The position numbers and the translations under genes are program-made. Positions 2,889-28,615 of a stretch of 39,975 nt of DNA are shown here, piece after piece. The number at the start of each line of letters is the position of its first letter. Within the stretch, counting starts at the first letter, position 1. The notes below the pieces were generated by a model that was given only the letters and a program-made list of their open reading frames with translations, searched no databases and was not told where the DNA came from. The DNA is taken from the sequence record SRR20825010_3006; one strand, 5' to 3'.

Positions 2889-3003
2889 TTTAACGCCTCC
2901 TGAAATGGGCGGAGAAGGCTAGCAGAGAGCAAGACCGCTTCTATGGTAAAACGGTAACACTTGCAGATTAGCCAACAGCCGTTAATCTTGCCCCCGATAT
3001 CAC

Positions 3004-3492
3004 TTGGAGACATTGGCCGCCGTGACAGAAAAAACACTTCCGTATACACGCTTGGACATATGCAACCGCTTCCTGGAGTCTGTGCGTCACTCCGTTGTGC
3101 TGGGGCTTGAGGTCGTCAGCGCTACTGAGGAGTGCGTCCGGGTCCGAATGCCCTGGCGAGACGATCTGGTCGGTAACCCGGAGACCGGGGTCATGCATGG
3201 CGGGGCCATTTTCGCGATGATGGATCAGGCTGGAGGGATGGCGATTACTTGCCGTACCTTCCCCACGTTTGAGATTACCCCGACCATCGATTTCCGCGTG
3301 GATCATTTGCGTAGCCCCGGAAAAGGCCGGGCTGTGGTGTGTGAGGCCAGATGCTATCGGCTCACCACCCATGTGGCTTTTGTCAGTGTAACGACCTGGG
3401 AGGAAGAGGGGGATGACGAACCTATTGCCACCGGGTTGGCAACCTATACGCGGCTAAAAATTGACAAGGCAGGCACGGTGGTGGGCCAATGA
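3004..3492 (+). CDS. PaaI-family hotdog-fold thioesterase
   Basis: LVGNPETGVMHGGAIFAMMD motif and TIDFRVDHL; true start may be GTG at 3022. Confidence 0.85.
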   Translation: METLAAVTEKTLPYTRLDICNRFLESVRHSVVLGLEVVSATEECVRVRMPWRDDLVGNPETGVMHGGAIFAMMDQAGGMAITCRTFPTFEITPTIDFRVDHLRSPGKGRAVVCEARCYRLTTHVAFVSVTTWEEEGDDEPIATGLATYTRLKIDKAGTVVGQ

Positions 3493-3944
3493 AAGCACTG
3501 AAAACGCTGATCGAAGAGTGCCGCAGTGGCGAGGCAGACTATCAGGCCCTGATCGACCGGGTGCCGTATGCACGGTTTCTGGGCATTCAGGTCATCGCCC
3601 AGGGGGATGAGCTGACCTTTGTGTTGCCCAAGCACGACAATGTGGTAGGCAACCCTACTTTGCCTGCGCTGCATGGCGGGGCGGTGGCCGGTTTTATGGA
3701 GCAGGCGGCGATTATCTTCATCCTGCTGCAAATGGGCGAACCCAAAGTGCCGAAAACCATCGATTTCACCATCGATTATCTGCGTGCGGGGCTGTTCCGT
3801 GACACTTACGCAGAATGCAGCGTCACGCGTCTGGGGCGACGAATTGCCAACGTGCACATCAGTGCCTGGCAAAAAAACCGCCAGGAGCCAATCACCATTG
3901 CCCGCGCTCACTTTCTCCTCTCTGACGATGGCGCTACGGACTGA
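3489..3944 (+). CDS. PaaI-family hotdog-fold thioesterase
   Basis: VVGNPTLPALHGGAVAGFME and KTIDFTIDYLR; ATGA overlap with the upstream gene indicates translational coupling. Confidence 0.85.
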   Translation: MKALKTLIEECRSGEADYQALIDRVPYARFLGIQVIAQGDELTFVLPKHDNVVGNPTLPALHGGAVAGFMEQAAIIFILLQMGEPKVPKTIDFTIDYLRAGLFRDTYAECSVTRLGRRIANVHISAWQKNRQEPITIARAHFLLSDDGATD

Positions 3945-3961
3945 TATCACATCCATTGTGT

Positions 3962-4065
3962 TTAGGCGCCACGGACGGCGCTAATTGTCATAACACGACA
4001 TTGCTCCCTTCCCGGCATCCACCTAGCGTTGAGTTATGACTTAGCGCTACCAAGGATGCCTAATG
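3962..4065 (+). promoter_or_regulatory. Structured leader or operator array upstream of the di-iron protein
   Basis: Hairpin TAGCGTTGAGT-TATG-ACTTAGCGCTA (4024-4049) closed by GGCATCC/GGATGCC (4014-4020/4054-4060) that covers the RBS; 3978-3994 is complementary to 4033-4047. Confidence 0.45.
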
Positions 4066-5175
4066 AAAATAACCAAAGTCAGCACGCCGCCTACCCAAGT
4101 CAGTATTTACGACAACTGGGATGGGCCAGGCCACGAAGACATCGAAGACAAATTGAGTGCGCAACACGTAGAAGATGTGGTGGAAATATTCCAGACCCCG
4201 CTCACGGGTCACTACAACTGGGATTATTCTTCCGCCGATGGCCGCATCCGCAAGCTCTACAAACTGGGCAAAGAGCTCAACTGGAATGCGGACATGGATG
4301 TGGATTGGTCAGAGAGCTTCCCCAAATCCGAGGTGCCACTGGATCAGTCGTTCAACCCGTTTCACGGCTGGGACACCTTCGAAGCATTAAGTGAGGATGA
4401 AAAGCTGCGTTTTGGCTGGCATAACCTGGCCTGGATGCTCGCGCAGTTTGTACACGGTGAGCAGGGGGCGTTACTGGTGGCCTCCCAGCTGGCTAGCTGC
4501 GCGCCCACCTATGACGCCAAACTCTATGCGGCAAGCCAGACCTTTGACGAAGCCCGCCACGTGGAAGTGTTCACGCGTTACCTGCAGGAAAAGATCGGCA
4601 TTCTCTACCCGGTGAATCCGAACCTGAAATCCCTGCTGGACAAGATTCTGTCCGACCCCCGCTGGGATCTGAAGTTTATCGGTATGCAGATCATTATCGA
4701 AGGGCTGGCGCTGGCCGCATTCAATACCTTGAAAATGACCGCCCAAGACCCTCTGTTGAAGCAGATCATTCATCTTGTTATTCGCGATGAAGCGCGGCAC
4801 GTTACCTTTGGTGTCAACTACTTGGAGGATTTTGTTGAGACTCTATCTGAAGAGGAAAAAGAAGAGCGTGCCCACTTTGCCTTCGAGGCTTGTGTGGTCA
4901 TGCGGGAGCGATTGATCAGCACCGAAGTGTTCGAACACTTTGGCTGGGATGTGGAGGCTGCCCGCGAGCAGGTATTGTCGTCCACCATCATGGCGCAGTT
5001 CCGTAACCTGCTGTTCACCCGCATTATGCCCAACCTCAAACGCATTGGCTTGCTCACGGATTCCGTGCGGCCGCGCTTCGAGGAGCTGGGTATCCTGCAG
5101 TTTGAAAACCTGGTGGACGACGGCCAGATCGACTGGGCCGAGCTGTCCAAGCCGCTCTACGACGAGGCGTCCTGA
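4063..5175 (+). CDS. Ferritin-like di-iron carboxylate protein (AurF/R2-like superfamily), substrate unknown
   Basis: E...DExRH...E...DExRH ligand pattern: HGEQGAL, FDEARH, IEGLALAAF, RDEARH. Confidence 0.8.
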   Translation: MKITKVSTPPTQVSIYDNWDGPGHEDIEDKLSAQHVEDVVEIFQTPLTGHYNWDYSSADGRIRKLYKLGKELNWNADMDVDWSESFPKSEVPLDQSFNPFHGWDTFEALSEDEKLRFGWHNLAWMLAQFVHGEQGALLVASQLASCAPTYDAKLYAASQTFDEARHVEVFTRYLQEKIGILYPVNPNLKSLLDKILSDPRWDLKFIGMQIIIEGLALAAFNTLKMTAQDPLLKQIIHLVIRDEARHVTFGVNYLEDFVETLSEEEKEERAHFAFEACVVMRERLISTEVFEHFGWDVEAAREQVLSSTIMAQFRNLLFTRIMPNLKRIGLLTDSVRPRFEELGILQFENLVDDGQIDWAELSKPLYDEAS

Positions 5176-5990
5176 ACCGATTCGATAATCAGCGCATCTC
5201 CCACCGGCCGGGCCAATGCCCGGCCGGTGGCGTTATAGGCCTGTTGCATGGCCTGGCGCCCCTGTTCCAGCTTGCCGGGACCGGAGCGAACCAGGCCGTC
5301 AATGGCAAGGGTGACCAGATTTGGGCGAGAAGGATGATGCAGAGCCTTGCTGTGCGGGCCGCGCCAGGGAGAGCGGGACTGCAAATGGTGATAGAGTACG
5401 CGCTCTCCGGGGTAGGTTGCGGCCAGCCCGTGCCGGTCGGCAATACCGCCGTCCCAGTAGTAGCGCCCGCCAATCCGGGCCGGCTGAAACAGCAAGGGGA
5501 CGGCGCAGGAGGCGTATATCGCTTCCACCAGGTTACCTTGTTGTAACACCTGCGTACGCCTGCTTTTCGCCTGCCAGGCAGAGACCGCCAGCGGGGTACG
5601 AGCCTCTTCCATGCGCTGAGCGGGTAGCAGGCCTGCCAGCATTCGGCGAAAAGCCTGACCGGATAACAAACCCAGCCCGGGGGAGGGATCCCAGAACTGG
5701 GATCGATCAAGACCGAGCAGCATGTCTTCGATGGCATTGATGCTGGCGCCGGAGGCCACGCAGGCCCCCACCAGCGCGCCGGCGCTGGAGCCACAGAAAC
5801 GAGCAGGAACCAGGCCGTGCTCAAGCAGGGCGCGCAGAGTGCCGAAATGGGCAAAAAAACCGAAAAACCCGGATGACATGGCGAGAGTAAAAGGTGTCTC
5901 GCCCAGCCAGTCCGCCAGCACCCCCTGATGCGATGTGCCCCGCAGCGGTGCGTAATCTGCCACACCTTGAACCGGAATCTGTAATGTCAC
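5157..5990 (-). CDS. Patatin-like phospholipase
   Basis: Gly-rich SSGFFGFFAHFG, nucleophile GSSAG, catalytic DGG; start may be GTG at 5963; 3' end overlaps the convergent di-iron gene by 19 bp. Confidence 0.85.
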   Translation of the reverse strand: MTLQIPVQGVADYAPLRGTSHQGVLADWLGETPFTLAMSSGFFGFFAHFGTLRALLEHGLVPARFCGSSAGALVGACVASGASINAIEDMLLGLDRSQFWDPSPGLGLLSGQAFRRMLAGLLPAQRMEEARTPLAVSAWQAKSRRTQVLQQGNLVEAIYASCAVPLLFQPARIGGRYYWDGGIADRHGLAATYPGERVLYHHLQSRSPWRGPHSKALHHPSRPNLVTLAIDGLVRSGPGKLEQGRQAMQQAYNATGRALARPVGDALIIESVQDASS

Positions 5991-7228
5991 AGCTTGACCC
6001 TTCCACCGAAATCGCTGGCAAGCCTACCTCGCGGACCTTCAGTCACACAATGCTGTTGGCGGCAGTGGCGGTAACAGCACTGGGGCAGACTCTGGTTTTT
6101 ACCATGCTGCCGTCATTGGGGCGAGCCACCGGTATGACGGAAATGCAGGTAGGACTGATCATCAGTTGTTCATCACTGGTGTTTGCCCTGGCCAGCCCGG
6201 TGTGGGGCACCTTGAGTGAATCGCTGGGTCGCAAGCGGGTCATGGTGATTGGGTTGTCGGGGTATTCGCTGGGCACGCTGTCGTTCGCTGTGGTGTTTGA
6301 TCTGGGCCTGCGCGGGGGATTGGTGGGCGTCGGTCTGGTGGCGGCTCTGGTACTGAGCCGTATGCTGCAGGCGGCGATTATGGCTGCAACGCCGGCAGCG
6401 GCAGCTGCGTATACCGCTGACATTACCACCCCGGAGCAGCGCACTCAGGGCATGGGACGCATCGGCGCGGCCAACAATATCGGTACCGTCGTCGGGCCTG
6501 TGTCCGGCGGCATTCTGGCTGCCATTGCATTGGTGTTCCCGCTGTACGGTGTGGCGGTTCTGACTGCCCTTATGGCGATTAGTGTGGCTCTGTGGCTGCC
6601 GCCATCACCGCATCGCCCCACGGCTCGCACCGTGCCGCTGCGTTCCGTGTTGCGCCACGGGCTGGCCGCCTATGCGGACCCGCGCTTGCGTGATCTGTTG
6701 CTGACCGGGGTGATGCTGTTTATGAGCTTCGCGCTCATTCAACAAACCCTGGGTTTCCTGTTCCAGGACCAGTTCCTGATGAGCCCTGCCGAAGCGGCGA
6801 GGGCACTGGGGCTGACCATGATGATGGCTGCACTGACATCGCTGTCGGGACAGTTGATTGTGGTGCAGTGGCTAAAAGCCCCGGCGACCCTGTTGATTGC
6901 GCTGGCTGTGCCCAGTATCGGTGCCGGTGCCGTTATTCTCTGGCTGGCGGACACGGAGGCCCTGATGAGCGGGGCGGTGCTGCTGGTCGGGCTGGGCCTG
7001 GGGTTTGGCATGCCGGCAATCATGTCCCTGGCCAGCCTGCGGGTGCCCACGGAAGAGCAGGGGCGCGTGGCGGGTCTGGCCAGCGCCTGTCCCGCGCTGG
7101 GGTTTATTGTCGGGCCGCTGGTGGGTACGGGGTTATACACTTTGGATCACCGCTGGCCGTATCTGTTGGTGATCGCGTTGCTGGTGCCGATGTCCGTGCT
7201 GGCCTGGCGACTTGCTCGCAAGGTCTGA
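5984..7228 (+). CDS. MFS transporter (DHA1/TetA-like)
   Basis: About 12 hydrophobic helices; motif A-like WGTLSESLGRKRV; GTVVGPVSGG. ATG at 5984 preferred over the ORF-track start at 5894. Confidence 0.85.
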   Translation: MSQLDPSTEIAGKPTSRTFSHTMLLAAVAVTALGQTLVFTMLPSLGRATGMTEMQVGLIISCSSLVFALASPVWGTLSESLGRKRVMVIGLSGYSLGTLSFAVVFDLGLRGGLVGVGLVAALVLSRMLQAAIMAATPAAAAAYTADITTPEQRTQGMGRIGAANNIGTVVGPVSGGILAAIALVFPLYGVAVLTALMAISVALWLPPSPHRPTARTVPLRSVLRHGLAAYADPRLRDLLLTGVMLFMSFALIQQTLGFLFQDQFLMSPAEAARALGLTMMMAALTSLSGQLIVVQWLKAPATLLIALAVPSIGAGAVILWLADTEALMSGAVLLVGLGLGFGMPAIMSLASLRVPTEEQGRVAGLASACPALGFIVGPLVGTGLYTLDHRWPYLLVIALLVPMSVLAWRLARKV

Positions 7229-7236
7229 GTCAGCGG

Positions 7237-8115
7237 TTAGGCCTGCACGTTCAGCGATTGCCACAGGTGTGCCGCAACCAGTGCCCGCCATGGTGTGAAT
7301 GCGGCCAGCCAATCCCGGGTCGCTTTCGCAGTCGGGCGTGCCTTCAAGCCCAGCAATTGCTGCAGTGCTTTCTGCACTGCTACATCGCCGTGCAGGCTGC
7401 CATCCAGATAGCCATACCCTCTCAGCAGGGTGTAATTCACACTCCAGGGCCCCAGCCCGCGAATGCCAAGCAGGGCCTGCTCCGTGCTCTGTGCATCAGC
7501 GTCAGAGTGCAATGCGTCAGGCAGCAGGGCGTGCTCACAGCAGCGCTGCGACACCGTCAACAATGTGTCTGCCTTACTGGCTGAAAAGCCGACACTGCGT
7601 AGTGCGCTGGCATCCAGCTTGTTCACCGCGGTGGCGTCAGGGTAGCAGTACAGGCCGCTGACCCGCGCTTGCCCCGCCAGCTGAATAAACCGTCGTCGGA
7701 TGGCGGTGGCCGCACTGACACTGATCTGTTGCCCGATGATGGCCCAGCTTAGTGCCTCGAATGGGGTCGCGGACTGTGGCACACGCAGCCCGCGCTGCCT
7801 GTCGATCAGCTGGCCGAGTGGTGCCGCCTCTCCGGTAACCGTTTGCTCGAATGTGTGTACAGGTTGGTCGAGGCCAAGCATGGCACGAGTCTGTCGGGAT
7901 AATGCGGTACGGGTGAGTGTGCTGGCCGCGGCGCGGACCTGCCCGGGATGATTGAAATCCAGTGCGAGCAAGCAGGGGTGGCCATCAAGAATCACGGCCT
8001 TGCGAAGCACATTACCTTCTACCTGCTCGGAAATGGCGTGCTGGTCACGGCCGTGGAAATCAAGGAAAGCGGGCACGCTAAAGTGAGACGGCAAGGCAAG
8101 GGTGAGGCTGCTCAC
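7237..8115 (-). CDS. alkA: DNA-3-methyladenine glycosylase II (AlkA family)
   Basis: PFEALSWAIIGQQISVSAA, HhH motif LLGIRGLGPWS, catalytic Asp in HGDVAV, PWRALVAAHLW; GTGA overlap with ada. Confidence 0.88.
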   Translation of the reverse strand: MSSLTLALPSHFSVPAFLDFHGRDQHAISEQVEGNVLRKAVILDGHPCLLALDFNHPGQVRAAASTLTRTALSRQTRAMLGLDQPVHTFEQTVTGEAAPLGQLIDRQRGLRVPQSATPFEALSWAIIGQQISVSAATAIRRRFIQLAGQARVSGLYCYPDATAVNKLDASALRSVGFSASKADTLLTVSQRCCEHALLPDALHSDADAQSTEQALLGIRGLGPWSVNYTLLRGYGYLDGSLHGDVAVQKALQQLLGLKARPTAKATRDWLAAFTPWRALVAAHLWQSLNVQA

Positions 8116-9200
8116 GCCTTTTTGTTTCCCTGTTCCCGGGCGAGCAGAGCGGCCTTGCGCTCAACCCCCCAGCGGTAGCCAGACAGACCGCCGTCGGCGC
8201 GGACAATACGGTGGCAGGGCACCAGAACCGCCAGCCTGTTACTGGCGCAAGCCCTGGCCACGGCGCGAGCAGCAGTGGGCCGCCCCAGCGTTTCTGCCAG
8301 CGCCTGATAGGAAAGGGTTTGTCCTGCCGGAATAGCCCGGAGCGCGGCCCACACCTGTTCTTGAAAAGCCGTGCCGCGTATATCCAGTGGCAGGGCATCC
8401 GGCAGCGGAGTTTGTGTGGCAAGGGGGGCGTCAATCAGCGTAATGACCATGGCAACACGTTGTTCAAATGCGCTATTGCCGGGTAACAGCTCTGCACCGC
8501 TGAATTCCTGCTCGAAATCGCCCAGCAGGGCATCCGGATCATCGCCCATGGCAACGGCACAGATACCGTTTTCGCTTTCTGCTACCAGTACGGCGCCCAG
8601 TGAGCTGTCAGCAATGGCGACGCGCAGCGCCAGGCCCTGGCCTGCCTGACGATACTGCCCCGGTTTCATGCCCAGGGTTTGCCCGGCGGAGCCATGGAGA
8701 TGGCTACTGGAATCAAAGCCGGCGTGATGTGCGGCGCGGGTCAGCGGCTGGTCGTCGCGTAACTGTTGGCGGACTCGACGGCGACGGACGGCAACACCGT
8801 ATTGATGCGGGGAAATTCCGGTAATGGCCTTGAACTGGCGCTGAAGGTGGGAGGGACTCCAGCCAGATTGCTCGGATAATTCCGCCAGTGTGGGTTTGTG
8901 TTCCGCCGTGTCGATGGTGCGGCACAAGGCAATCACTGTGGCCGCGATGGGCGATGGGGAATCCCCCAGAGGGTGGCAGCGGCGACAGGGACGATAACCG
9001 TTCCGCAGAGCTGCCCCGGCATTATCGAACAGACGAATATTCTCGTTGCGTGGACGGCGCGAAGGGCAGGTGGGCAGGCAGAAAATACCGGTTGTGACGA
9101 CCCCATACACAAAGGTATCACCGGGGATGCATCGATGTTCATCGATGGCTTGCTGCCGTTGCTGGTCTGCATTCATCGTTGTGCGTTGGCCTGTTCGCAT
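8112..9200 (-). CDS. ada: Bifunctional Ada transcriptional activator / O6-methylguanine-DNA methyltransferase
   Basis: Zn domain TTGIFCLPTCPSR and YRPCRRCHP, AraC HTH, active site PCHRIV; alternative start at 9176. Confidence 0.93.
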   Translation of the reverse strand: MRTGQRTTMNADQQRQQAIDEHRCIPGDTFVYGVVTTGIFCLPTCPSRRPRNENIRLFDNAGAALRNGYRPCRRCHPLGDSPSPIAATVIALCRTIDTAEHKPTLAELSEQSGWSPSHLQRQFKAITGISPHQYGVAVRRRRVRQQLRDDQPLTRAAHHAGFDSSSHLHGSAGQTLGMKPGQYRQAGQGLALRVAIADSSLGAVLVAESENGICAVAMGDDPDALLGDFEQEFSGAELLPGNSAFEQRVAMVITLIDAPLATQTPLPDALPLDIRGTAFQEQVWAALRAIPAGQTLSYQALAETLGRPTAARAVARACASNRLAVLVPCHRIVRADGGLSGYRWGVERKAALLAREQGNKKA

Positions 9201-9214
9201 GGGTCCTGCCCCGT

Positions 9215-9245
9215 AGTATGAAGGGAAGTATGAAGGGAAATGAAG
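9215..9245. repeat. 12-bp tandem duplication in the ada leader
   Basis: AGTATGAAGGGA twice (9215-9238), followed by a partial copy AATGAAG. Confidence 0.8.
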
Positions 9246-9291
9246 CTAACGGGGAGCATGGCGAAAAGGGCGCGGGCGCACATTCGAAATG

Positions 9292-9406: not shown

Positions 9407-10072
9407 TTACTTGGTGTAAGGCAGCAGTGTCAGTTCCACGCGACGGTTCTGTTCCCGGCCGCTGGCCGTATTGTTGCTGGCAATGGGCTGGGTTTCACCA
9501 AAGCCCACGGTGTCCAGACGAACCTGTTCAACGCCATAGCCAGAAAGTTTGTTGGATACCGCCTGGGCCCGTTGCTGGGACAGCAGCAGGTTGTAGCGAT
9601 CGCCGCCAGTGCTGTCTGTGTGACCAGCCACCTGAATCATGGTGGATTTGTATTCATTAAGCACTTCGGACACCGCATCCAGCACCGGATCGAAAGAAGA
9701 CTTCACGCTGGTGCTGTCAGTGGCAAAGGTCAGGTTACCCGGCATGTTGAGGATGATGTTTTCGCCATCACGGGTAACGGAAACACCGGCGCCTTCGAGC
9801 TTCTGGCGCAGCTTGGCTTCCTGAACGTCCATGTAATAGCCCACACCGCCGCCGGTAACCGCGCCAATGCCAGCCCCGGCCAGAGCGCGCTCTTTACGTT
9901 CTTTGGCGCTGTCGGAGGTGGCGATACCGATCAGCGCACCGGCTACCGCACCAATTGCCGCACCGGATGTGGCTTTGGAGGTCTGTTTTTCACCCGTATA
10001 GGGATTAACCGTGCTGCAGCCCGTAACGGCAATCGCACTCGCCAGCGCAAGTGACCCGGCAAATCGTTTCAT
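9407..10072 (-). CDS. yiaD: OmpA-family outer-membrane lipoprotein (YiaD-like)
   Basis: Lipobox VTGC, NPYTGE, glycine zipper, GYYMDVQEAKLRQ, OmpA C-domain GHTDS...LSQQRA...NRRVE. Confidence 0.88.
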   Translation of the reverse strand: MKRFAGSLALASAIAVTGCSTVNPYTGEKQTSKATSGAAIGAVAGALIGIATSDSAKERKERALAGAGIGAVTGGGVGYYMDVQEAKLRQKLEGAGVSVTRDGENIILNMPGNLTFATDSTSVKSSFDPVLDAVSEVLNEYKSTMIQVAGHTDSTGGDRYNLLLSQQRAQAVSNKLSGYGVEQVRLDTVGFGETQPIASNNTASGREQNRRVELTLLPYTK

Positions 10073-10211: not shown

Positions 10212-11030
10212 TTGGTTATTCAGGATTTTTCCCCGCCATCGCTGGCGACAATGGACCGGCTGCTGGCTGTGTCCCGGCATTATTTTGCTCCCCTGTTATT
10301 GGGTGCCGACAATGTAGACCCACAGCGCCCGGCGCTGTTTGTGGGCAATCATGGTCTGTACGGCCTGATTGATTCCCCGCTTTTCGTGCTCGAGCTGTAC
10401 CGGCAAACCGGCGTTTTCCCCAGGGCCCTTGGAGACCGGGTGCATTTCCGCGTGCCGGGCTGGGGGCCCTTGCTGAAACGCTGGGGGGCAGTGGAAGGCA
10501 ATCCTGACAATTGCACGCAACTGATGCAGGCCGGACAGCCGGTGCTGGTGTTTCCCGGCGGCGCCCGGGAAGTGGCCATGCGCAAGGATGAAGTGCACAA
10601 GCTGGTGTGGAAGCAACGTACGGGATTTGCACGCATGGCCATTGAGCACGGCTACGACATTATTCCGTTTGCCTCGGCCGGTTGTGACGAAGCTTACCGC
10701 GTACTGGTTGACGGTAACGATTTCCAGCAATCCTGGCTGGGCCGCACTTTGCTGAAGCGCCCACGGCTCGACAAGCTATTACGTGGCGGGGACATGTTCA
10801 TGCCGTTGAGCCGGGGCGTGGGGCCGACCCTGATTCCCAAGCCGGAGCCGCTCTGGTTCCAGATCGGGGAGCCTATTTCTACCGCTCCCTGGGCCGGCAG
10901 TGAAGGGGATGGCGACGCCTGCTGGGCGGTGCGTGAAACCGTCGCAGCCTCGATCTACAGCATGCTGGGGTCTCTGAATCAGGAGCGCGCGGTGGCTCGC
11001 AAGCAAGGCTGGCGACGCTGGTTGCTGTGA
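10212..11030 (+). CDS. Lysophospholipid/glycerolipid acyltransferase (DGAT2/MGAT-like LPLAT)
   Basis: ALFVGNHGLYGLID (NH...D), VFPGGAREV, RTGFARMA; start TTG 10212 or ATG 10251. Confidence 0.82.
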   Translation: MVIQDFSPPSLATMDRLLAVSRHYFAPLLLGADNVDPQRPALFVGNHGLYGLIDSPLFVLELYRQTGVFPRALGDRVHFRVPGWGPLLKRWGAVEGNPDNCTQLMQAGQPVLVFPGGAREVAMRKDEVHKLVWKQRTGFARMAIEHGYDIIPFASAGCDEAYRVLVDGNDFQQSWLGRTLLKRPRLDKLLRGGDMFMPLSRGVGPTLIPKPEPLWFQIGEPISTAPWAGSEGDGDACWAVRETVAASIYSMLGSLNQERAVARKQGWRRWLL

Positions 11031-11100
11031 TCGGTTCGCAACTCCGACCCTGGCCTGTTGCTCCCCCAAACCTCCTTTGTCACAAATAGTCCATGCAATG

Positions 11101-11135
11101 TCCTGCCACGCCAGTGAAAGCCCGGCGTGTCAGGA
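11101..11135. promoter_or_regulatory. Inverted repeat upstream of the FAD-oxidoreductase operon
   Basis: TCCTGCCACGCC-N11-GGCGTGTCAGGA (11 of 12 bases pair), about 30 nt before the ATG. Confidence 0.45.
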
Positions 11136-11165
11136 TTACTATGGGGAAAAATAAGGAGTGCATGC

Positions 11166-12758
11166 ATGCGACGCTGGAATGGCTGGGGTGACAGTAACAA
11201 TCACTATCCGTTAAAACCGTCAGGACTGACCTTCATTCAGTCCCGCTTAGGCCGGGCGGAGCCGCTGCCGGACGCGGAAATGGCCGCAGTGATCGCCCAG
11301 GTGCCGGCGTCCCGGCTGCCGGACCATCCGGGCGTGAAGACAGACCCGGAAACCCGACTGCGCCATGCGCGCGGCCAGAGCCTGCCAGACTGGCTGGCCA
11401 TGCGCTCCGGCGAGTTCGAGCGATTTCCGGATGGGGTTGCCACGCCCTCCAGTAGCGAGGAAGTTCGCGAACTGCTCGATTGGGCTCTGGCCCAGGGCAT
11501 TACCGTGATTCCCTATGGCGGTGGCACGTCCGTGGCAGGGCATATCAATCCCCCCGATGGCGATGCACCGGTTCTGACCTTGAGCCTGGCGGCCATGGAC
11601 CAGCTGATGGATTTGGATACGCAAAGCCAGATCGCCACCTTTGGTGCAGGCACACCGGGCCCCAAGGTTGAGCAGCAGCTTCGTGAGCGGGGCTACATGC
11701 TGGGGCACTTTCCCCAATCCTGGGAGCTGTCCACCATTGGCGGCTGGGTGGCCAGTCGTTCCAGCGGCCAGCAATCCATGCGTTATGGGCGTATCGAACA
11801 GATGTTTGCCGGTGGTCGAGTGGAAACGCCCAAAGGTACATTGACGATTCCTACCATTCCGGCTTCATCAGCAGGGCCTGACCTGCGGGAAATTATCCTC
11901 GGCTCGGAAGGGCGCATGGGGGTGATCACCGAAGTCAAAGTGCGGGTCACGCCCTTACCGGAAACGGAAACATTTCAGGTGGCCTTTGCCCCCGACTGGG
12001 ATACCGGCAAAGAGCTGGTACGGCAGATGACCCAGGCGAAGATACCGCTTTCCATGCTGCGCCTGTCCAATGCAGAAGAAACCCGCACGCATCTGATGCT
12101 GGCCGGCCACGAAAAGCTGGTCGGTATTTTGCATCGTTACCTGGGGGTGCGTGGCTGTGGTGACGGCAAATGCATGATCACGTTCGGTGTAACCGGCGAA
12201 AAGGCCCAGGCGCGTCACGTGCTTTCTCAGGCTCGCAAGCGCATCCGTCAGGCTGGCGGCGTTATGGTGGGCACCCTGCTGGGGAAAAAATGGGAAGAGT
12301 CCCGTTTTCGCTCGCCGTATCTGCGCCACGGATTGTGGGAGCACGGTTATGTGGTCGATACCTTTGAAACCGCCGTGGACTGGAACCGGGTGACTCCGGC
12401 CATGGTTGCCATGGAACAGGCGGTCCGCGATAACGCGGGTGACGGCGAGCAAGTGCATGTCTTTACGCACCTGTCACATTTGTACTCGCAAGGTTCCAGT
12501 ATCTATACCACTTACGTGTTTCGCTGCGCGGACAGTTACCAAGCCACGCTGGCTCGCTGGCGGGTGCTGAAGCAGGCAGCCAGTGAGGCCATTGTGGCGA
12601 ACGGTGGCACCATCAGTCACCAGCATGGCGTAGGCCGTGACCACGCGCCCTGGTTGCACCATGAAAAAGGCGAGCACGGAATGGCGGTGTTGAACCGGCT
12701 GGTCGATCACTTCGATCCCCAGCATCGCCTGAATCCCGGTTGCTTGATCGACGACTGA
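11166..12758 (+). CDS. FAD-binding oxidoreductase, alkyl-dihydroxyacetonephosphate synthase (ADPS)-like
   Basis: Start MRRWNGWG after RBS AAGGAG; VAO-fold motifs PYGGGTSV, GHFPQSWELSTIGGWVA, GSEGRMGVIT; C-terminal SHQHGVG and LNPG. Confidence 0.85.
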   Translation: MRRWNGWGDSNNHYPLKPSGLTFIQSRLGRAEPLPDAEMAAVIAQVPASRLPDHPGVKTDPETRLRHARGQSLPDWLAMRSGEFERFPDGVATPSSSEEVRELLDWALAQGITVIPYGGGTSVAGHINPPDGDAPVLTLSLAAMDQLMDLDTQSQIATFGAGTPGPKVEQQLRERGYMLGHFPQSWELSTIGGWVASRSSGQQSMRYGRIEQMFAGGRVETPKGTLTIPTIPASSAGPDLREIILGSEGRMGVITEVKVRVTPLPETETFQVAFAPDWDTGKELVRQMTQAKIPLSMLRLSNAEETRTHLMLAGHEKLVGILHRYLGVRGCGDGKCMITFGVTGEKAQARHVLSQARKRIRQAGGVMVGTLLGKKWEESRFRSPYLRHGLWEHGYVVDTFETAVDWNRVTPAMVAMEQAVRDNAGDGEQVHVFTHLSHLYSQGSSIYTTYVFRCADSYQATLARWRVLKQAASEAIVANGGTISHQHGVGRDHAPWLHHEKGEHGMAVLNRLVDHFDPQHRLNPGCLIDD

Positions 12759-12797
12759 TACGGGCACGATTCGCTTACCACCAACAGGAAAATTTCT

Positions 12798-14360
12798 ATG
12801 CTCGGCCAACGCCGCACGCTGACAGAACTGGCCGCACCCTCCACACAGGGAAAGCCGCAATGGGACCTGATCGTCATCGGTGGCGGAATCACGGGTGCCG
12901 GTGTGATGCTGGAAGCGGCTCGTCGCGGACAACGGGTGCTGCTATTGGAGCAAACCGATTTCGCCTGGGGGACCTCGAGTCGTTCCTCCAAAATGGTGCA
13001 CGGCGGCTTGCGCTACATTGCCCAGGGCGATATTGCCCTGACACGCCATTCACTGCTGGAGCGTGAACGGTTGCTCAATGAGTTGCCGGGGCTGGTTGAG
13101 CGCGCGACCTACCTTTTCCCGTTGCGCAAGGGCGTATTCCCCGGGCGCTGGCCCATGAAGGCGGTGTTGTGGCTGTATGATTTCCTGGCCGGTATTCGCG
13201 ATCATCGTTACCTCAACCGGACGCAATTGCTAGAGCGGGTGCCCGGGCTGCAGGATCAGGATCTCACCGGGGCCATGTGCTATACCGACGCGCTCACCGA
13301 CGATTGCCGCCTGGTCATGCGTACGCTGTTGGAGGGCGCGCGTCATGGCGGTGTAGCACAGAATTACGCCCGTGTCGTTCAGGCTGAGCGGAGTGAAAAG
13401 GGGGAGCAGGGCTTCTCTGTTACCGTGGAAGACCGGGTCAGTGGCGAACTGTCCACGCTCAAGGCGACTGCGGTGGTGAGTGCCACCGGCGCCTGGGCGG
13501 ACCGTTTTTCCGGTACCGAGGCCAGGGTGCGACCATTGCGTGGCAGCCACCTGTTTATCGACCCGGCGGTATTACCGGTCAACGATTGCCTTACGGTGAT
13601 GCATCCTGACGATGGCCGGCCGGTGTTTGTCTTTCCCTGGGAGGGGGTGACCTGTGTGGGCACCACGGACCTGGATCACCCCCAGGACATGGATATTGAG
13701 GCCTCAGCCAGTGACCGGGAGGTGGTCTATCTGCTCAAGCTCATCAATACCCAGTTCCCCGGCCGAAACGTAACCCGCGAACACATCTATTCGACCATCG
13801 CCGGCGTGCGCCCGGTTATCGCCTCAGGCAAGGGCGTGGATCCGTCCAAGGAGCGTCGGGATCATGCGGTTTGGGGTGAAAATGGCATTGTCACCGTCAG
13901 CGGCGGCAAGCTCACCACCTTTCGGTTGATTGCACTGGATGCGCTGTTGGCCACCGGTTTGATTGACGATAAAGAGCACCGTCGCAGCCAGAAAAGCAAA
14001 GCACGTGGTTTTGAGCCCATCGAGAATGCCCCCCAGGCGGTGGAGGCGTTTCTGCATGCGGATCAGACGAATTCAGCCTTTATTGCGTGGATTCTGGCCC
14101 ATGAATCGGTGGTGCATCTGGATGACCTGATGTTGCGTCGCACTCGCCTTGGGTTGGTCAAACCCGCTGCAGGGATCGCGGTACTGACCACCTTGCGTGT
14201 GCAAATCCAACAGGCCCTGGGCTGGGATGACACCCGTTGGGATAAGGAGCTGATCCGCTACCGGGAAATTCACCAGCGCTACTATGGCGTGCCCACGCCT
14301 GTTGGCGATGTTGCTGAGCCGAACGTCTCGGCCGAGCACCGGGAGAGGCAGGCAGGATGA
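12798..14360 (+). CDS. glpD: FAD-dependent glycerol-3-phosphate dehydrogenase/oxidase-like protein
   Basis: DLIVIGGGITGAG, GTSSRSSKMVHGGLRY, VGTTD, AGVRP, GGKLTTFR, DLMLRRTRL. Confidence 0.85.
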   Translation: MLGQRRTLTELAAPSTQGKPQWDLIVIGGGITGAGVMLEAARRGQRVLLLEQTDFAWGTSSRSSKMVHGGLRYIAQGDIALTRHSLLERERLLNELPGLVERATYLFPLRKGVFPGRWPMKAVLWLYDFLAGIRDHRYLNRTQLLERVPGLQDQDLTGAMCYTDALTDDCRLVMRTLLEGARHGGVAQNYARVVQAERSEKGEQGFSVTVEDRVSGELSTLKATAVVSATGAWADRFSGTEARVRPLRGSHLFIDPAVLPVNDCLTVMHPDDGRPVFVFPWEGVTCVGTTDLDHPQDMDIEASASDREVVYLLKLINTQFPGRNVTREHIYSTIAGVRPVIASGKGVDPSKERRDHAVWGENGIVTVSGGKLTTFRLIALDALLATGLIDDKEHRRSQKSKARGFEPIENAPQAVEAFLHADQTNSAFIAWILAHESVVHLDDLMLRRTRLGLVKPAAGIAVLTTLRVQIQQALGWDDTRWDKELIRYREIHQRYYGVPTPVGDVAEPNVSAEHRERQAG

Positions 14361-15922
14361 TGGATGAGCCGCTGGTACTGGCGCTGGATCAGGGCACGCA
14401 AAGCGTGCGTGCCATGCTATTCAATCGCGACGGCGAGCTGATCGCCCGTTACCAGCAACATATCGAGCCTTATTTCTCCCACGAGCCGGGCCAGGCAGAA
14501 CAACATGCCAGCTATTTCTGGGAACAACTTGGACTCGCTTGCCAGGGGCTATGGGAGCAGCACGGCGCACTCAAACATCAGGTTAAAGCGGTGGCACTGA
14601 CCACGCAGCGCGCTTCGGTGGTGTGTCTTGATGAACACAAGCAACCGATACGCCCGGCGATTATCTGGCTGGACCAGCGTCGCACGGATTCCATCCCCCG
14701 GCTGCCCTGGTGGCTGGCTGCCCCGGTGACGGTGATGGGGCAGGGGGAAACCCTGCGGCAGTTCCAGGCCAAGGCCGAGTGCAACTGGCTGGCAGTGGAT
14801 GAGCCTGCGCTGTGGCAGAAAACCCGATACTTTTTGCTGCTGTCGGGCTACCTGACCTATCAGCTTACCGGGCAGCTGCGCGACTGTACCGCGTCGCAGG
14901 TGGGCTACATTCCGTTCGATTACAAAGGGCGCTGCTGGGCGCCGGCCCATGATCTTAAATGGCAGGCCTTGCGGGTTCGGCGTGAACAGTTGCCGGAGCT
15001 AGTGGTGCCTGGCAAACCACTGGGTACGATCACCGGGCAGGCCAGCCTCGCCACAGGCATCCCCGAAGGGTTGCCCCTGATTGCGTGCGGCGCGGACAAG
15101 GCCTGTGAAGTGCTGGGAGCAGGCGCGTTCACCCCGGAAATCGGCAACCTGAGTTACGGTACCACCGCCACGTTCAACACCTGTAACGCGCGTTACGTGG
15201 AGCCGATCACCTTTGTCCCGGCCTACGGTGCCGCCGTGCCCGATCGCTATAATTCCGAAATCATCGTTCAGCGCGGTTACTGGATGGTCAACTGGTTCAA
15301 ACGCGAATTCGGGCAACAGGAAGTGCAGCAGGCAGAGACACTTGGCGTGGCACCGGAAACGCTCTTTGAAGCCTTGCTGGAAGAGTCTTCGCCGGGCGCC
15401 ATGGGGTTAATGCTGCAGCCATTCTGGAACCCCGGTGTGCGCATTCCCGGTCCAGAGGCCAAGGGGGCCATTATCGGGTTTGGCGATGTACACACCCGCG
15501 CTCACATGTACCGGGCGATTATCGAAGGCATTGCCTATGCCCTTCGCGAGGGAAAAGAGCGGCTGGAAAAACGTAACCGCATCCCGGTCACCTCCCTGCG
15601 CGTGTCCGGCGGTGGCTCGCAAAGTGATGCGATCATGCAGATCACCGCGAACATCTTCAATTTGCCTGCAGTGAGGCCCCACACCACGGAAACTTCCGGC
15701 CTGGGGGCTGCGATCAATGCGGCCGTCGCTTTGGGTCTGCACCCGGACTATCCCTCTGCGGTGGCCGCAATGACACGCCCGGGTGACACTTTCCTGCCAG
15801 AGGCGGCTCCGGCACGTCACTACGACGCCCTGTACCGGGACGTCTACCGCAAGTTGTATCCCCGCCTGGCACCTCTATACCGCTCCATTCGCCGTATTAC
15901 CGGCTATCCGGCTCGGGTTTAA
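14357..15922 (+). CDS. FGGY-family carbohydrate/glycerol kinase
   Basis: LALDQGTQSVR, PAIIWLDQR, GADKAC, SYGTT, RAIIEGIA, SGGGSQS; ATGA overlap with the glpD-like gene. Confidence 0.88.
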   Translation: MMDEPLVLALDQGTQSVRAMLFNRDGELIARYQQHIEPYFSHEPGQAEQHASYFWEQLGLACQGLWEQHGALKHQVKAVALTTQRASVVCLDEHKQPIRPAIIWLDQRRTDSIPRLPWWLAAPVTVMGQGETLRQFQAKAECNWLAVDEPALWQKTRYFLLLSGYLTYQLTGQLRDCTASQVGYIPFDYKGRCWAPAHDLKWQALRVRREQLPELVVPGKPLGTITGQASLATGIPEGLPLIACGADKACEVLGAGAFTPEIGNLSYGTTATFNTCNARYVEPITFVPAYGAAVPDRYNSEIIVQRGYWMVNWFKREFGQQEVQQAETLGVAPETLFEALLEESSPGAMGLMLQPFWNPGVRIPGPEAKGAIIGFGDVHTRAHMYRAIIEGIAYALREGKERLEKRNRIPVTSLRVSGGGSQSDAIMQITANIFNLPAVRPHTTETSGLGAAINAAVALGLHPDYPSAVAAMTRPGDTFLPEAAPARHYDALYRDVYRKLYPRLAPLYRSIRRITGYPARV

Positions 15923-15983: not shown

Positions 15984-16964
15984 ATGTTCCGCTGGTGCTC
16001 AACGCTGTCTCTGCTTGCCGCTGTGTTGGTGCTGCCTATGGCTGCGCACAGCGACGATAACAGCAACACTCTGAGCCAATTACGGGCCGATCTCTCGCAG
16101 GGCCAACTGGGTGTGCTGCTACAGCGGCAGGATATCGTGCCGCTGCCTGCATCGACCATCAAACCCTGGATACAGGCGCAGCCCATCGACCGTTTTGCGA
16201 TCACTGGCTTCAATGAAAGCGACAGTCGTTTTGCGGCACGGGTACGGCTGCATTTTCCCAGCGGGGGAATCAGCTTTCTCCGCCTGGAAGGCACCCCGGC
16301 CAAGCCCTACACCTTGACCGACTGGTACGACTATAGCTCCGGGCTGCGGCTAACGGCGTTGCTGAAAGAAGGGCGCTGGTTGCAGAGTGAGGGCGGCAAG
16401 GCGTTTCTGGAGGCACTCGGCGAGTCGCCAAACGAGGCTCGGGTGGCCGATTTGGCTGAAGGGCGATCCGCAGCCTTGACCTTGTGGCTGACCCAGTGCC
16501 TGGGCAAGCCCTGTGAGCGCATTGCGGCCGCCCATCAGCTTGAATCCGAACAGCCGATGATCTGGTTGTTGCGCCGGGCCATCGCCAGTGGCGACACCGA
16601 TCAATATCGGCAACAGCATGATGCGTTGCTGGGCGCACTGGGCGATGATGCTTACCTGTGGTGGCTGGAAGGGCAGTATGCGCTGGAATTCCAACAGTGT
16701 GCCTGGCTGGCCTCGCCATTGCGTGAGGCCTGGCAGCGCCATAAGGATGAGCTGTTGCTGGCCGATGTGGCGCTGCAATGCACACTGAATCACACGCCGG
16801 AACAGACCACTTTTGGCACCGCGCTGACCCGGCAGCTGTCTGTCTCGACTATCATGGATTCTGTAACGGCGTTTTTTGCCGCCCATAGCCGACCGGTGCC
16901 GCAAAGCTGGCAGCTGTGGGGGCAGACCTATCTATCACCCATCCTGCCCGCTGATCAGGAGTAA
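15984..16964 (+). CDS. Exported hypothetical protein
   Basis: Signal peptide MFRWCSTLSLLAAVLVLPMAAHS; fills the gap between the kinase and MerR genes; C-terminal part looks helical-repeat-like. Confidence 0.6.
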   Translation: MFRWCSTLSLLAAVLVLPMAAHSDDNSNTLSQLRADLSQGQLGVLLQRQDIVPLPASTIKPWIQAQPIDRFAITGFNESDSRFAARVRLHFPSGGISFLRLEGTPAKPYTLTDWYDYSSGLRLTALLKEGRWLQSEGGKAFLEALGESPNEARVADLAEGRSAALTLWLTQCLGKPCERIAAAHQLESEQPMIWLLRRAIASGDTDQYRQQHDALLGALGDDAYLWWLEGQYALEFQQCAWLASPLREAWQRHKDELLLADVALQCTLNHTPEQTTFGTALTRQLSVSTIMDSVTAFFAAHSRPVPQSWQLWGQTYLSPILPADQE

Positions 16965-28587: not shown

Positions 28588-28615
28588 TCAGGCGTCCGGC
28601 GTCAGGCGTCCGGCG
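28588..28615. repeat. Heptamer tandem repeat (TCMGGCG)x4
   Basis: TCAGGCG TCCGGCG TCAGGCG TCCGGCG spans the acyltransferase stop; a degenerate inverted copy lies at about 28550-28561. Confidence 0.7.

Follow-up and report, generated by a model that had tools for sequence, protein, structure and literature searches.

The window analyzed here, the whole stretch of 39,975 nucleotides in sequence record SRR20825010_3006, is Alcanivorax DNA (98% to Alcanivorax sp. DG881) and carries four co-oriented genes of interest on the + strand. The host type is a marine, oil-degrading bacterium. The genes and the one putative regulatory feature at the locus are the following:

10212..11030, + strand: lysophospholipid-acyltransferase-family gene (272 aa; PF01553 at 1.4e-13 and partial DAGAT PF03982 in Pfam)
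11078..11145, + strand: candidate promoter/operator of the three genes that follow (the trio), with a conserved block at 11078-11120 and a -10-like TACTAT at 11137-11142
11166..12758, + strand: AGPS-like (alkyl-DHAP-synthase-family) flavoenzyme (530 aa; N-terminal RWNGWG and an SHQHGVG loop)
12798..14360, + strand: GlpD-like FAD-dependent glycerol-3-phosphate-type dehydrogenase (520 aa; DAO and DAO_C in Pfam)
14357..15922, + strand: FGGY-family kinase (521 aa; FGGY_N and FGGY_C in Pfam)

This layout agrees with the original prediction, which had been made from the letters and their open reading frames: the four same-strand ORFs lie at 10212-11030, 11127/11166-12758, 12798-14360, and 14357-15922, and the last two are coupled, the GlpD-like stop and the kinase start sharing a 4-nt ATGA overlap (14357-14360) preceded by GGAGAGG. 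Pfam concurs with the proposed VAO fold of the FAD enzyme (FAD_binding_4, PF01565, and FAD-oxidase_C, PF02913, the VAO/PCMH fold), and its SHQHGVG motif occupies residues 484-490. The true start of this flavoenzyme is most likely the ATG at 11166 and not the GTG at 11127, judging from the alignment; the ATG follows AAGGAG, and M-R-R-W-N-G-W-G begins all 21 aligned orthologues there. The sole support for the TTG start of the acyltransferase (10212) is protein-level conservation from residue 2-5 on in its relatives.

The order AGPS-like, GlpD-like, FGGY kinase was kept in 73 of 80 related loci, and five of the seven loci without the full order end at contig ends. The best explanation is that the functional unit is a three-gene operon in this order with its own promoter region. 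By sequence comparison the trio is orthologous to PA3026-PA3024 of P. aeruginosa, where members of these three families likewise follow one another in this order on one strand, and the kinase, dehydrogenase, and AGPS-like enzyme, previously proposed as one set, do form a conserved unit equal to that operon. The PA3026-PA3024/GliR operon had been cited beforehand, and its existence is confirmed in the sections of Kotecka et al. (2021, PMC8151288) drawn on here. The window differs from P. aeruginosa in having no divergent AraC gene and, instead, an acyltransferase and a YiaD lipoprotein gene upstream. Divergent AraC (GliR-like) genes were present in 22 gammaproteobacterial loci of other genera, and an unlinked GliR-like homologue, 43-44% identical, was found in 5 of 5 related Alcanivorax genomes.

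An alignment of 13 Alcanivorax intergenic regions revealed the conserved upstream block, TGTCAC...GCCAGTGAAA (11078-11120), which is present with the acyltransferase upstream and also in two species without it (L016 and L027). Together with TACTAT it is a candidate promoter/operator of the trio, a reading made from inspection by eye; a promoter consensus scan of the window did not list the block, and a GliR motif A match at 11100-11114 with 3 mismatches does not rise above chance, the window holding 187 matches of this quality versus 135 expected.

Synteny across homologs did not bear out the earlier inclusion of the acyltransferase in the pathway. Only 12 of 80 loci have the gene next to the trio (<=150 nt), and in a further 6 of 80 it is separated from the trio by 0.7-2.4 kb containing other ORFs. 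In 8 of 24 Alcanivorax genomes it is unlinked, elsewhere in the genome, so that its linkage is not conserved across lineages. A search at E<=1e-10 gave no match for it in G028 and G029, two genomes that belong to other families and carry the trio, and the promoter-like block stands between it and the trio. The protein was placed in an atlas cluster named "lysophospholipid acyltransferase family," had no NCBIfam match and no PDB relative, and bears no specific likeness to the AT domain of the AT::AGPS fusion described below. It is a separate, lineage-specific neighbor rather than a conserved module member, and a part in the pathway is not supported.

In a PDB search, the flavoenzyme matched Dictyostelium ADPS (2uuu; E 2.7e-73 over residues 41-527, 30% identity) and guinea-pig AGPS (4bby; 2e-61), with the next family at 1e-21. 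Counted on the PDB-search alignment, its R299 and Y447 align with guinea-pig R419 and Y578, which Nenci et al. are said to have identified in 2012 as the catalytic Arg and Tyr. This pair occurs in all AGPS-family rows except one mis-extracted ORF, whereas the GlcD-like outgroup has F/H at these positions. The WNGWG segment near the N-terminus is fully kept. The full-length match to 2uuu and 4bby and the kept Arg and Tyr argue for AGPS-family membership, upholding the ADPS-like identity first suggested for this enzyme. An identity as a D-lactate/glycolate dehydrogenase was rejected, given the AGPS matches of 2.7e-73 and 2e-61 versus 1e-21 and an Arg/Tyr pair that is not in the GlcD-like outgroup.

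The His-His-His loop (HHHGVG) is altered to S-H-Q-H-G-V-G, with the first and third His kept and the middle His replaced by Gln, a substitution found in 24 of 25 rows of the window clade and in none of the 71 other rows. A quick maximum likelihood (ML) tree of 96 rows, which left out MXAN_1676, placed eukaryotic AGPS including Dictyostelium in its own 11-row clade (SH-aLRT 96) and the flavoenzyme in a separate 65-row GlpD-linked group (support 94), with the deep forks poorly resolved; no experimentally characterized AGPS grouped with it. On these comparisons, the flavoenzyme is a genuine AGPS-family protein belonging to a prokaryotic branch distinct from that of eukaryotic AGPS. With eukaryotic AGPS/ADPS (EC 2.5.1.26; 2uuu, 4bby), which converts acyl-DHAP and a fatty alcohol into alkyl-DHAP and a fatty acid, it shares the fold, a full-length alignment, WNGWG, the Arg/Tyr pair, and two loop His, but its middle His is Gln, and its gene is accompanied by those of a dehydrogenase and a kinase, whereas the eukaryotic enzyme is partnered by GNPAT and FAR.

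The GlpD-like protein matches PF01266 at 1-351 and PF16901 in part, and it scored 256 bits on NF008899 (cut-off 360, from a model for which only 1 of 14 control genomes reaches the cut-off). Its motifs GGLRY, GSH, GTTD, AGVRP, and GGKLTTFR align with 3da1 and match ordinary GlpD; they appear to give no sign of room for a C1 substituent, which would count against a catabolic lipid reading. In 24 of 24 Alcanivorax genomes this gene is the sole GlpD-family match (E<=1e-30). A sister genus (G025) has, at the syntenic locus, a copy of 55-57% identity with neither AGPS nor FGGY beside it, so the enzyme may simply oxidize G3P. Two genomes (G029 and G035) encode a canonical GlpD (785-790 bits) besides the trio copy. 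The best NCBIfam match of the FGGY kinase was XylB TIGR01312 (250 bits, cut-off 380), and it scored 147 bits on GlpK TIGR01311 (cut-off 590); equivalog identity with either was rejected, both scores being below cut-off. A canonical GlpK is encoded elsewhere in 5 of 5 related Alcanivorax genomes (723-729 bits versus the cut-off of 590), its gene isolated without glpD or glpF beside it. The low score on the GlpK model and this canonical GlpK make a second glycerol kinase unlikely.

Related clusters in other phyla inform the likely substrate. The AGPS-GlpD-YegS clusters (L093-L172; Mycobacterium, Chloroflexota, Bacteroidota, Parvibaculum) share with the trio an AGPS-like enzyme adjoining or fused to a GlpD-like one plus a kinase, but they differ in having a DAGK/YegS kinase instead of FGGY, an HHH loop, and TetR or FadR regulators; the M. 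tuberculosis representative is presumably Rv2249c-Rv2252. AGPS::GlpD fusion proteins of ~1100 aa, found in 4 representative clusters that include Fidelibacterota and Calditrichota MAGs, argue that the product of one enzyme is passed on to the other. Of 80 loci in other phyla, 20 have a YegS/DAGK-type lipid kinase next to AGPS/GlpD and 1 has FGGY there, whereas YegS occurs in 0 of 80 gammaproteobacterial loci, which suggests that the kinase step is integral and that its slot is filled elsewhere by a lipid kinase. Regulators of the FadR type, an acyl-CoA-sensing family, are encoded directly upstream in L147, L151, L157, L159, and L169. The fusions, the YegS-type kinases, and the FadR-type neighbors would all point to lipid substrates. 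A PF01553 acyltransferase::AGPS fusion (P0166) also exists, and in L101 the AGPS gene is overlapped by a FAR-like gene. P. aeruginosa has both an FGGY and a YegS-type kinase (PMC8151288, in the sections consulted), which may mean that one does not substitute for the other; the PA3023-type lipid kinase lies downstream of its operon, whereas 0 of 80 loci of the window trio type have one there.

We tentatively favor the possibility that the trio serves the turnover of 1-O-alkylglycerol-type lipids. The kinase would phosphorylate a 1-O-substituted glycerol, most likely a long-chain 1-O-alkylglycerol from ether lipids, and the membrane-linked GlpD-type enzyme would oxidize C2 with electrons going to quinone, yielding a 1-O-substituted DHAP. 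The AGPS-type flavoenzyme, through covalent flavin-N5 chemistry, would then exchange the C1 substituent, releasing a fatty alcohol and leaving DHAP or acyl-DHAP; the released alcohol and the remaining product would both feed pathways already present in an alkane degrader. It is more doubtful that each step is as specific as an FGGY kinase recruited to a lipid, a GlpD-type enzyme forming alkyl-DHAP, and a flavoenzyme that splits it, working in reverse relative to ether-lipid synthesis, with the His-Gln-His loop tuning alkoxide release. The catabolic direction is favored because the three enzymes alone complete the route; the AGPS::GlpD fusions, YegS lipid kinases, and FadR/AraC regulators fit both it and a lipid substrate, and RNA-library contigs spanning the AGPS>GlpD and GlpD>FGGY junctions are also counted for it. 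Against it, FGGY kinases are not known to act on lipids, and known AGPS chemistry comprises only acyl exchange and acyl-DHAP hydrolysis, the alkyl-DHAP-to-alcohol direction not being among them; further, the related loci do not consistently pair the trio with a transporter, lipase, or alcohol dehydrogenase. In P. aeruginosa, according to the sections of PMC8151288 used here, a phospholipase C and a lipid kinase are induced together with the operon by GliR, which favors catabolism of lipids, and a strain lacking the operon showed no phenotype on the tested media (the substrates named there did not include ether lipids), which weakens the catabolic ether-lipid reading. Such a route would reach the same end, cleavage of the 1-O-alkyl bond of alkylglycerols, as AGMO, described in the portions of PMC9192799 and PMC7911779 consulted as the only enzyme known to do so; AGMO is a tetrahydrobiopterin-dependent membrane oxygenase, whereas the proposed route needs ATP and quinone and no oxygenase. 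If true, this would be a second, widespread route of ether-lipid degradation.

The same enzymes might instead run biosynthetically, the GlpD-like enzyme oxidizing G3P or 1-acyl-G3P to DHAP or acyl-DHAP and the AGPS-like enzyme forming alkyl-DHAP with a fatty alcohol derived from alkanes; the acyl-DHAP would come, in Alcanivorax, from the neighboring acyltransferase. The AGPS-family catalytic residues, a GlpD-like enzyme resembling an ordinary G3P dehydrogenase, and the acyltransferase::AGPS fusion agree with this, as do the many genera of hydrocarbon degraders that make fatty alcohols among the bearers of orthologues (Alcanivorax, Marinobacter, Oleiphilus, Bermanella, Thalassolituus, Alkanindiges, and Ketobacter), on a list biased by its ranking by similarity to the Alcanivorax query. 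We nevertheless regard this route as unlikely. Two further enzymes, a fatty-acyl reductase and an alkyl-DHAP reductase, would be required, and neither is present in or near the operon. The acyltransferase is inconsistently linked and not specifically similar to the fused AT domain, a dedicated kinase and dehydrogenase make little sense for DHAP, a central metabolite, and regulators of the AraC and FadR types usually go with catabolic operons. The bacterial AGPS of biosynthetic context (L101 and the AT::AGPS fusion) sit in another clade of the ML tree. M. xanthus MXAN_1676, counted with them on the literature (PMC9131029), belongs to an operon, MXAN_1676-1674, of AGPS, FAR/GNPAT-like, and NAD epimerase family proteins; this operon resembles the trio in including a bacterial homologue of AGPS, but its fatty-acyl reductase and acyltransferase domains give it a biosynthetic logic that the trio does not have. 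Our literature search found no report of ether lipids in Alcanivorax or Marinobacter, the enzyme name being absent among the matches listed. For PA3026-PA3024, a biosynthetic route and a link to glycerolipid metabolism have both been proposed (Kotecka et al., PMC8151288, as far as the consulted sections go).

Two further readings dispense with ether lipids. In Brucella erythritol catabolism, EryA (FGGY kinase) is followed by EryB, a GlpD-like dehydrogenase whose substrate is a phosphorylated polyol other than G3P, and by analogy the trio could break down a small soluble glycerol-like compound (a polyol or short 1-O-substituted glycerol), the AGPS-fold protein serving as a lyase or redox enzyme; the Brucella pathway differs in having no AGPS-like enzyme and a soluble C4 polyol as its substrate. 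The FGGY kinases known from characterization all act on small sugars or polyols, XylB is the best match here, and the clade-marking His-Gln-His could reflect an altered reaction. The lipid kinases and FadR-type regulators of the related clusters, the fully kept catalytic residues and WNGWG, a lack of any consistently linked sugar or polyol transporter, and the co-induction of phospholipase C by GliR (PMC8151288, in part) speak against such a compound, to which we assign a low probability. Ordinary glycerol/G3P catabolism, with the GlpD-like protein as the housekeeping aerobic G3P dehydrogenase, the FGGY protein as a second glycerol-type kinase, and the AGPS-like protein as an independent accessory, seems quite improbable. 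It would account for the single GlpD homologue of the 24 Alcanivorax genomes, the isolated canonical glpK, the lone copy in G025, and, in the consulted sections of Kotecka et al. (PMC8151288), some non-Pseudomonas operon carriers without other glpD/glpK genes. Yet an AGPS>GlpD order this strict, together with the four fusion clusters, suggests that the steps are coupled, the kinase is far from GlpK, and G029 and G035 have a canonical GlpD as well. P. aeruginosa, too, has GlpD and GlpK besides the operon, and its operon deletion strain grows normally on glycerol (PMC8151288, same sections).

ORF calling on the window, which is Alcanivorax DNA (its flavoenzyme protein is 98% identical to that of Alcanivorax sp. 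DG881), confirmed the four co-oriented genes originally noticed at 10212-15922.

Genes of the trio and their surroundings in the window
1767-2888, minus strand: alpha/beta hydrolase
3004-3944, plus strand: two 4HBT thioesterases
4063-5175, plus strand: AurF-like di-iron oxygenase
5157-5990, minus strand: patatin-like phospholipase
7237-9200, minus strand: ada and alkA-like genes, upstream flank, beyond YiaD
9407-10072, minus strand: YiaD-type OmpA lipoprotein, upstream flank
10212-11030, plus strand: acyltransferase, 272 aa; PF01553 and partial DAGAT
11166-12758, plus strand: VAO-fold flavoenzyme, 530 aa; PF01565 and PF02913
12798-14360, plus strand: GlpD-like dehydrogenase, 520 aa; PF01266 and partial PF16901
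14357-15922, plus strand: FGGY kinase, 521 aa; FGGY_N and FGGY_C
About 15984-16964, plus strand: secreted protein without a known family, downstream flank
After the secreted-protein ORF: MerR-type regulator and KefC-like antiporter, downstream flank

The stop of the GlpD-like gene and the start of the kinase gene share ATGA, preceded by GGAGAGG, and 39 nt separate the flavoenzyme stop from the dehydrogenase start, which lies behind AGGAA. The most likely flavoenzyme start is the ATG at 11166, behind AAGGAG; MRRWNGWG begins 21 of 21 aligned orthologues at this position.

We compared the 80 best related loci, taking one genome per species and counting the trio by tblastn. The AGPS-like, GlpD-like, and FGGY kinase genes follow one another on a single strand in 73 of the 80; five of the seven exceptions are interrupted by contig ends (L039, L043, L064, L072, and L082), and the other two are an uncertain case (L066) and a flavoenzyme gene without GlpD-like and FGGY genes (L088). 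The acyltransferase gene lies no more than 150 nt upstream of the trio in 12 of the 80 loci, exclusively of Alcanivorax type, and 0.7 to 2.4 kb from it in six further loci with other ORFs intervening (in L028, L029, L032, and L044, an MpaB/Lcp-like oxygenase gene and an opposite-strand GNAT gene); its neighbor throughout is the divergent YiaD gene. Six Alcanivorax-type loci have no acyltransferase gene beside the trio (L016, L017, L026, L027, L038, and L064). Whole-genome searches recovered a flavoenzyme orthologue in every one of the 24 genomes of the genus and in 3 of the 17 from other genera of the order. The acyltransferase is also present in 24/24 Alcanivorax genomes, adjoining the trio in 16 and unlinked in 8 (in G007 the two lie far apart, 758 kb and 2319 kb), and a whole-genome search at E<=1e-10 found no homologue of it in the trio-bearing genomes G028 and G029. 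The window acyltransferase had no significant similarity to the acyltransferase domain of P0166, a representative protein in which such a domain is fused to AGPS. The original prediction had counted the acyltransferase as a pathway member and proposed checking its synteny; linkage across homologues is not conserved (12/80 loci), and with the gene unlinked in a third of the Alcanivorax genomes (8/24), membership was not borne out. On this comparative evidence, the acyltransferase is a lineage-specific neighbor outside the module, and the conserved unit is three genes rather than four. The parallel drawn with P. aeruginosa PA3026-PA3024 was right, judging from passages of the paper on that operon (PMC8151288) and the shared trio order in 73/80 loci.

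An intergenic alignment of 13 Alcanivorax species revealed a conserved block at 11078-11120 upstream of the flavoenzyme gene and a conserved -10-like hexamer at 11137-11142, both retained with or without an acyltransferase gene upstream. We read block and hexamer as a putative promoter/operator of the trio itself. A consensus promoter/terminator scan between the genes gave nothing useful. RNA-library contigs from two seawater runs span the AGPS>GlpD and GlpD>FGGY junctions. No contig among those listed for runs X2, X3, X8, and X9 bridges the acyltransferase>AGPS gap, where depth is low; X2 and X3 come from a single study, X8 and X9 possibly from a single data set, and contigs cannot show absence, making the missing bridge at most a weak hint that the acyltransferase is transcribed apart from the trio. 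An X2 contig starts at 11131 with a fold-back loose end; this was not accepted as a transcription start.

The best match of the flavoenzyme among solved structures was Dictyostelium alkyl-DHAP synthase (2uuu; E of 2.7e-73 over residues 41-527; 30% identity), followed by guinea-pig AGPS (4bby; E of 2e-61), while D-lactate, glycolate, and 2-hydroxyglutarate dehydrogenases reached 1e-21 or worse and matched in the FAD domain only; its identification as AGPS-like thus stands. By manual count on the structure-search alignment, R299 and Y447 align with guinea-pig R419 and Y578, which, together with the HHH loop, we take to be catalytic in AGPS. Across 96 aligned rows, every AGPS-family row bar one mis-extracted ORF has R and Y at these positions, and the GlcD-like paralogue of the nearest Alcanivorax genome has F and H (paralogue row L175, a mis-extracted ORF, was disregarded). 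The flavoenzyme retains the N-terminal WNGWG, and the eukaryotic HHH loop (THHHGIG, SHHHGVG, or SHHHAVG in six eukaryotic rows) is replaced by H-Q-H, which occurs in 24 of the 25 rows forming the window's clade and in 0 of 71 others.

The phylogeny suggested with the original prediction was run as a quick maximum-likelihood tree of the 96 rows (LG+G4, SH-aLRT support alone, deep forks open), and it placed the flavoenzyme inside the AGPS family, apart from the 11-row clade holding the eukaryotic enzymes. The window protein falls in an 18-row orthologue clade (support 100), with the full trio present for 16 of its members. Adding GlpD-adjacent Chloroflexota and Holophagales genes gives an enclosing clade of 25 rows (100); Parvibaculum-type alphaproteobacterial genes extend this to 35 rows (95) and actinobacterial genes to 65 (94). 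The separate 11-row clade (96) contains six rows of eukaryotic AGPS, including the characterized Dictyostelium enzyme, three actinobacterial proteins, the fusion P0166, and L101, a Bacteriovoracaceae gene overlapping at its stop with a FAR-like "male sterility" reductase gene. By this tree the flavoenzyme therefore belongs to a prokaryotic branch within the AGPS family, and tree topology and neighboring genes together indicate that the partners of this branch are unlike those of known biosynthetic enzymes.

The AGPS-like/GlpD-like module is represented by thousands of members in many phyla, Pseudomonas and Mycobacterium included; the family comprises 16376 representative clusters at E<=1e-3 and 1183 at E<=1e-30. 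Four of the best 150 representatives are AGPS-like/GlpD-like fusions of about 1100 aa, the named members coming from Fidelibacterota and Calditrichota MAGs, and one, P0166 (801 aa, with the eukaryote-type clade), is the acyltransferase::AGPS fusion. In a second set of 80 loci, found by a fusion-alignment search, AGPS-like and GlpD-like genes are adjacent or fused in Chloroflexota, actinobacteria, Parvibaculum, Bacteroidota, Bacteriovoracaceae, and some archaeal MAGs, with a divergent arrangement in Mycobacterium and other actinobacteria. ORF clustering of this set found a GlpD-like gene in at least 41 of 80 loci, a YegS/DAGK_cat lipid kinase gene (PF00781 and PF19279) in at least 20, and an FGGY kinase gene in one (L157); these counts are lower bounds because greedy ORF calling mislabeled some AGPS and GlpD genes in high-GC loci. 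Wherever seen, the lipid kinase gene adjoins the AGPS/GlpD pair or lies within three genes of it; no YegS-type gene turned up in any of the 80 gammaproteobacterial loci. Further recurrent neighbors encode TetR regulators, beta-ketoacyl synthases, an acyl-CoA-synthetase-type protein, alpha/beta hydrolases, and a CDP-alcohol phosphatidyltransferase. Another representative, P0130 (597 aa), has an AGPS-like N-terminal part followed by a domain of the histone-deacetylase family and may be an assembly chimera.

The P. aeruginosa operon is flanked by a divergent AraC gene encoding its activator GliR (PA3027), whereas the window has no AraC gene beside the trio. A divergent AraC gene (Arabinose_bd and HTH_18) lies directly upstream of the trio in at least 22 loci, none from Alcanivorax, and a co-oriented FadR-type regulator gene (GntR and FadR_C) occupies this position in five loci of the trio clade's sister lineage (L147, L151, L157, L159, and L169). 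A GliR-like homologue unlinked to the trio is present in 5 of 5 related genomes (43-44% identity, 283-294 bits; second-best match, 159 bits or less). In G007 (L177, G007:C1:1050400-1063400) this gene (44% identity; 6013-7041) lies just 5' of a DUF3336 and patatin lipase gene (7692-9257), a pairing that echoes the phospholipase C of the P. aeruginosa GliR regulon. A candidate site at 11100-11114 (minus strand) for GliR motif A, given in the GliR paper as YYGGCGHTDTYSGMC (PMC8151288), had three mismatches and was dismissed as not above chance, because the window holds 187 such matches versus 135 expected.

We tentatively favor catabolic ether cleavage as the most attractive single reading of the trio. 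The kinase would convert 1-O-alkylglycerol to 1-alkyl-G3P, the GlpD-like enzyme would oxidize this to 1-alkyl-DHAP, and the AGPS-like enzyme would release a fatty alcohol and DHAP (or acyl-DHAP), so that, by family assignment, the trio could suffice for the entire degradative route. AGPS::GlpD fusions argue for a pathway that is tied to lipids and in which the AGPS-like enzyme receives its substrate straight from the dehydrogenase, and the lipid kinases filling the kinase slot in other lineages, the FadR and AraC control, and the joint induction by GliR in P. aeruginosa of a lipid kinase and phospholipase C (PMC8151288) point the same way. So does a true GlpK encoded elsewhere, by an isolated gene, in 5 of 5 Alcanivorax genomes, which would leave no need for a second glycerol kinase. 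Two more activities, fatty-acyl reductase and alkyl-DHAP reductase, would be required for ether-lipid synthesis; fatty-acyl reductase genes accompany the other AGPS clade, as at L101 and, according to PMC9131029, at M. xanthus MXAN_1676-1674, and we consider synthesis improbable.

The GlpD-like gene itself speaks for a simpler substrate. Searched at E<=1e-30, each of the 24 Alcanivorax genomes gave this gene as its sole GlpD-family match, and the encoded protein aligns at its GlpD motifs with the structure of an ordinary GlpD. In G025, a genome from a sister genus in the same family (L178, G025:C3:224500-238500), a lone GlpD-like gene (6024-7574, minus strand; 55-57% identity) sits between YiaD and a MerR-KefC block, a window-like neighborhood, and no AGPS-like, FGGY, or acyltransferase gene is present at this locus; either two of the three genes were lost or they were gained later in Alcanivorax. 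Sole copy, lone copy, and ordinary motifs together imply that the enzyme can act alone, most simply on G3P. The GlpD-like enzyme may use substituted G3P as well as G3P. Plain G3P catabolism seems quite unlikely to us, and a soluble glycerol-like substrate is also unlikely. G029 and G035 carry a canonical GlpD (785-790 bits) besides the trio's copy. A complex prediction for the AGPS-like enzyme with GlpD-like residues 1-395 scored 0.00 and bears neither way.

Supplements aside, literature searches yielded no paper assigning a function to the module or the trio, and for a bacterial alkylglycerol pathway they gave the GliR paper (PMC8151288) and passing mentions only. A proteomics table in PMC5491041 lists PA3026 as scarcer on C18 than on C16 alkane, and the abstracts of PMC9192799 and PMC7911779 call alkylglycerol monooxygenase (AGMO) the sole known ether-lipid-cleaving enzyme. 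If the module acts in either the breakdown or the synthesis of ether lipids, alkylglycerol biomarkers from the sea and from sediments would have to be reinterpreted as to their origin and turnover, the list of ether-lipid-cleaving enzymes would extend beyond AGMO, and the substrates ascribed to FGGY kinases and to GlpD-type dehydrogenases would need revision. The window contributes another copy of a known operon, and its comparison adds that the acyltransferase is not among the conserved members. Alcanivorax, which is non-pathogenic and experimentally tractable, would be a clean host for a functional test because of its single GlpD homologue.

Several further observations concern the surroundings of the trio. 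In Bermanella (L046, L050, and L055), genes for a DUF1302 outer-membrane protein and a PF04116 fatty-acid-hydroxylase-family protein lie 3' of the kinase gene; PF04116 is presumably the superfamily to which AGMO belongs. In G007 (G007:C1:2318911-2325587), two equal-scoring acyltransferase homologues flank a third copy with 8 stop codons, which looks like a local duplication with one copy decayed. The window ORF at 15984-16964 (plus strand), 3' of the kinase gene, has a signal-peptide-like start (MFRWCSTLSLLAAVLVLPMAAHS), matched nothing in Pfam or NCBIfam, and is kept in place in Alcanivorax only (13 loci, 38-92% identity). Further lipid genes of the window, at 24135-24794 (plus strand) and 28588-29496 (minus strand), are a GDSL/TesA-like lipase gene, next to which lie paired ABC transporter genes of MacB type, and another acyltransferase gene of family PF01553; by position they are unrelated to the trio. 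The ada gene, encoding a bifunctional regulator/O6-methylguanine methyltransferase (391 bits above its cutoff), shares 4 nt with the alkA-like glycosylase gene as an adaptive-response pair (7237-9200, minus strand), and the lipid-type gene run at 1767-5990 is kept upstream across Alcanivorax species.
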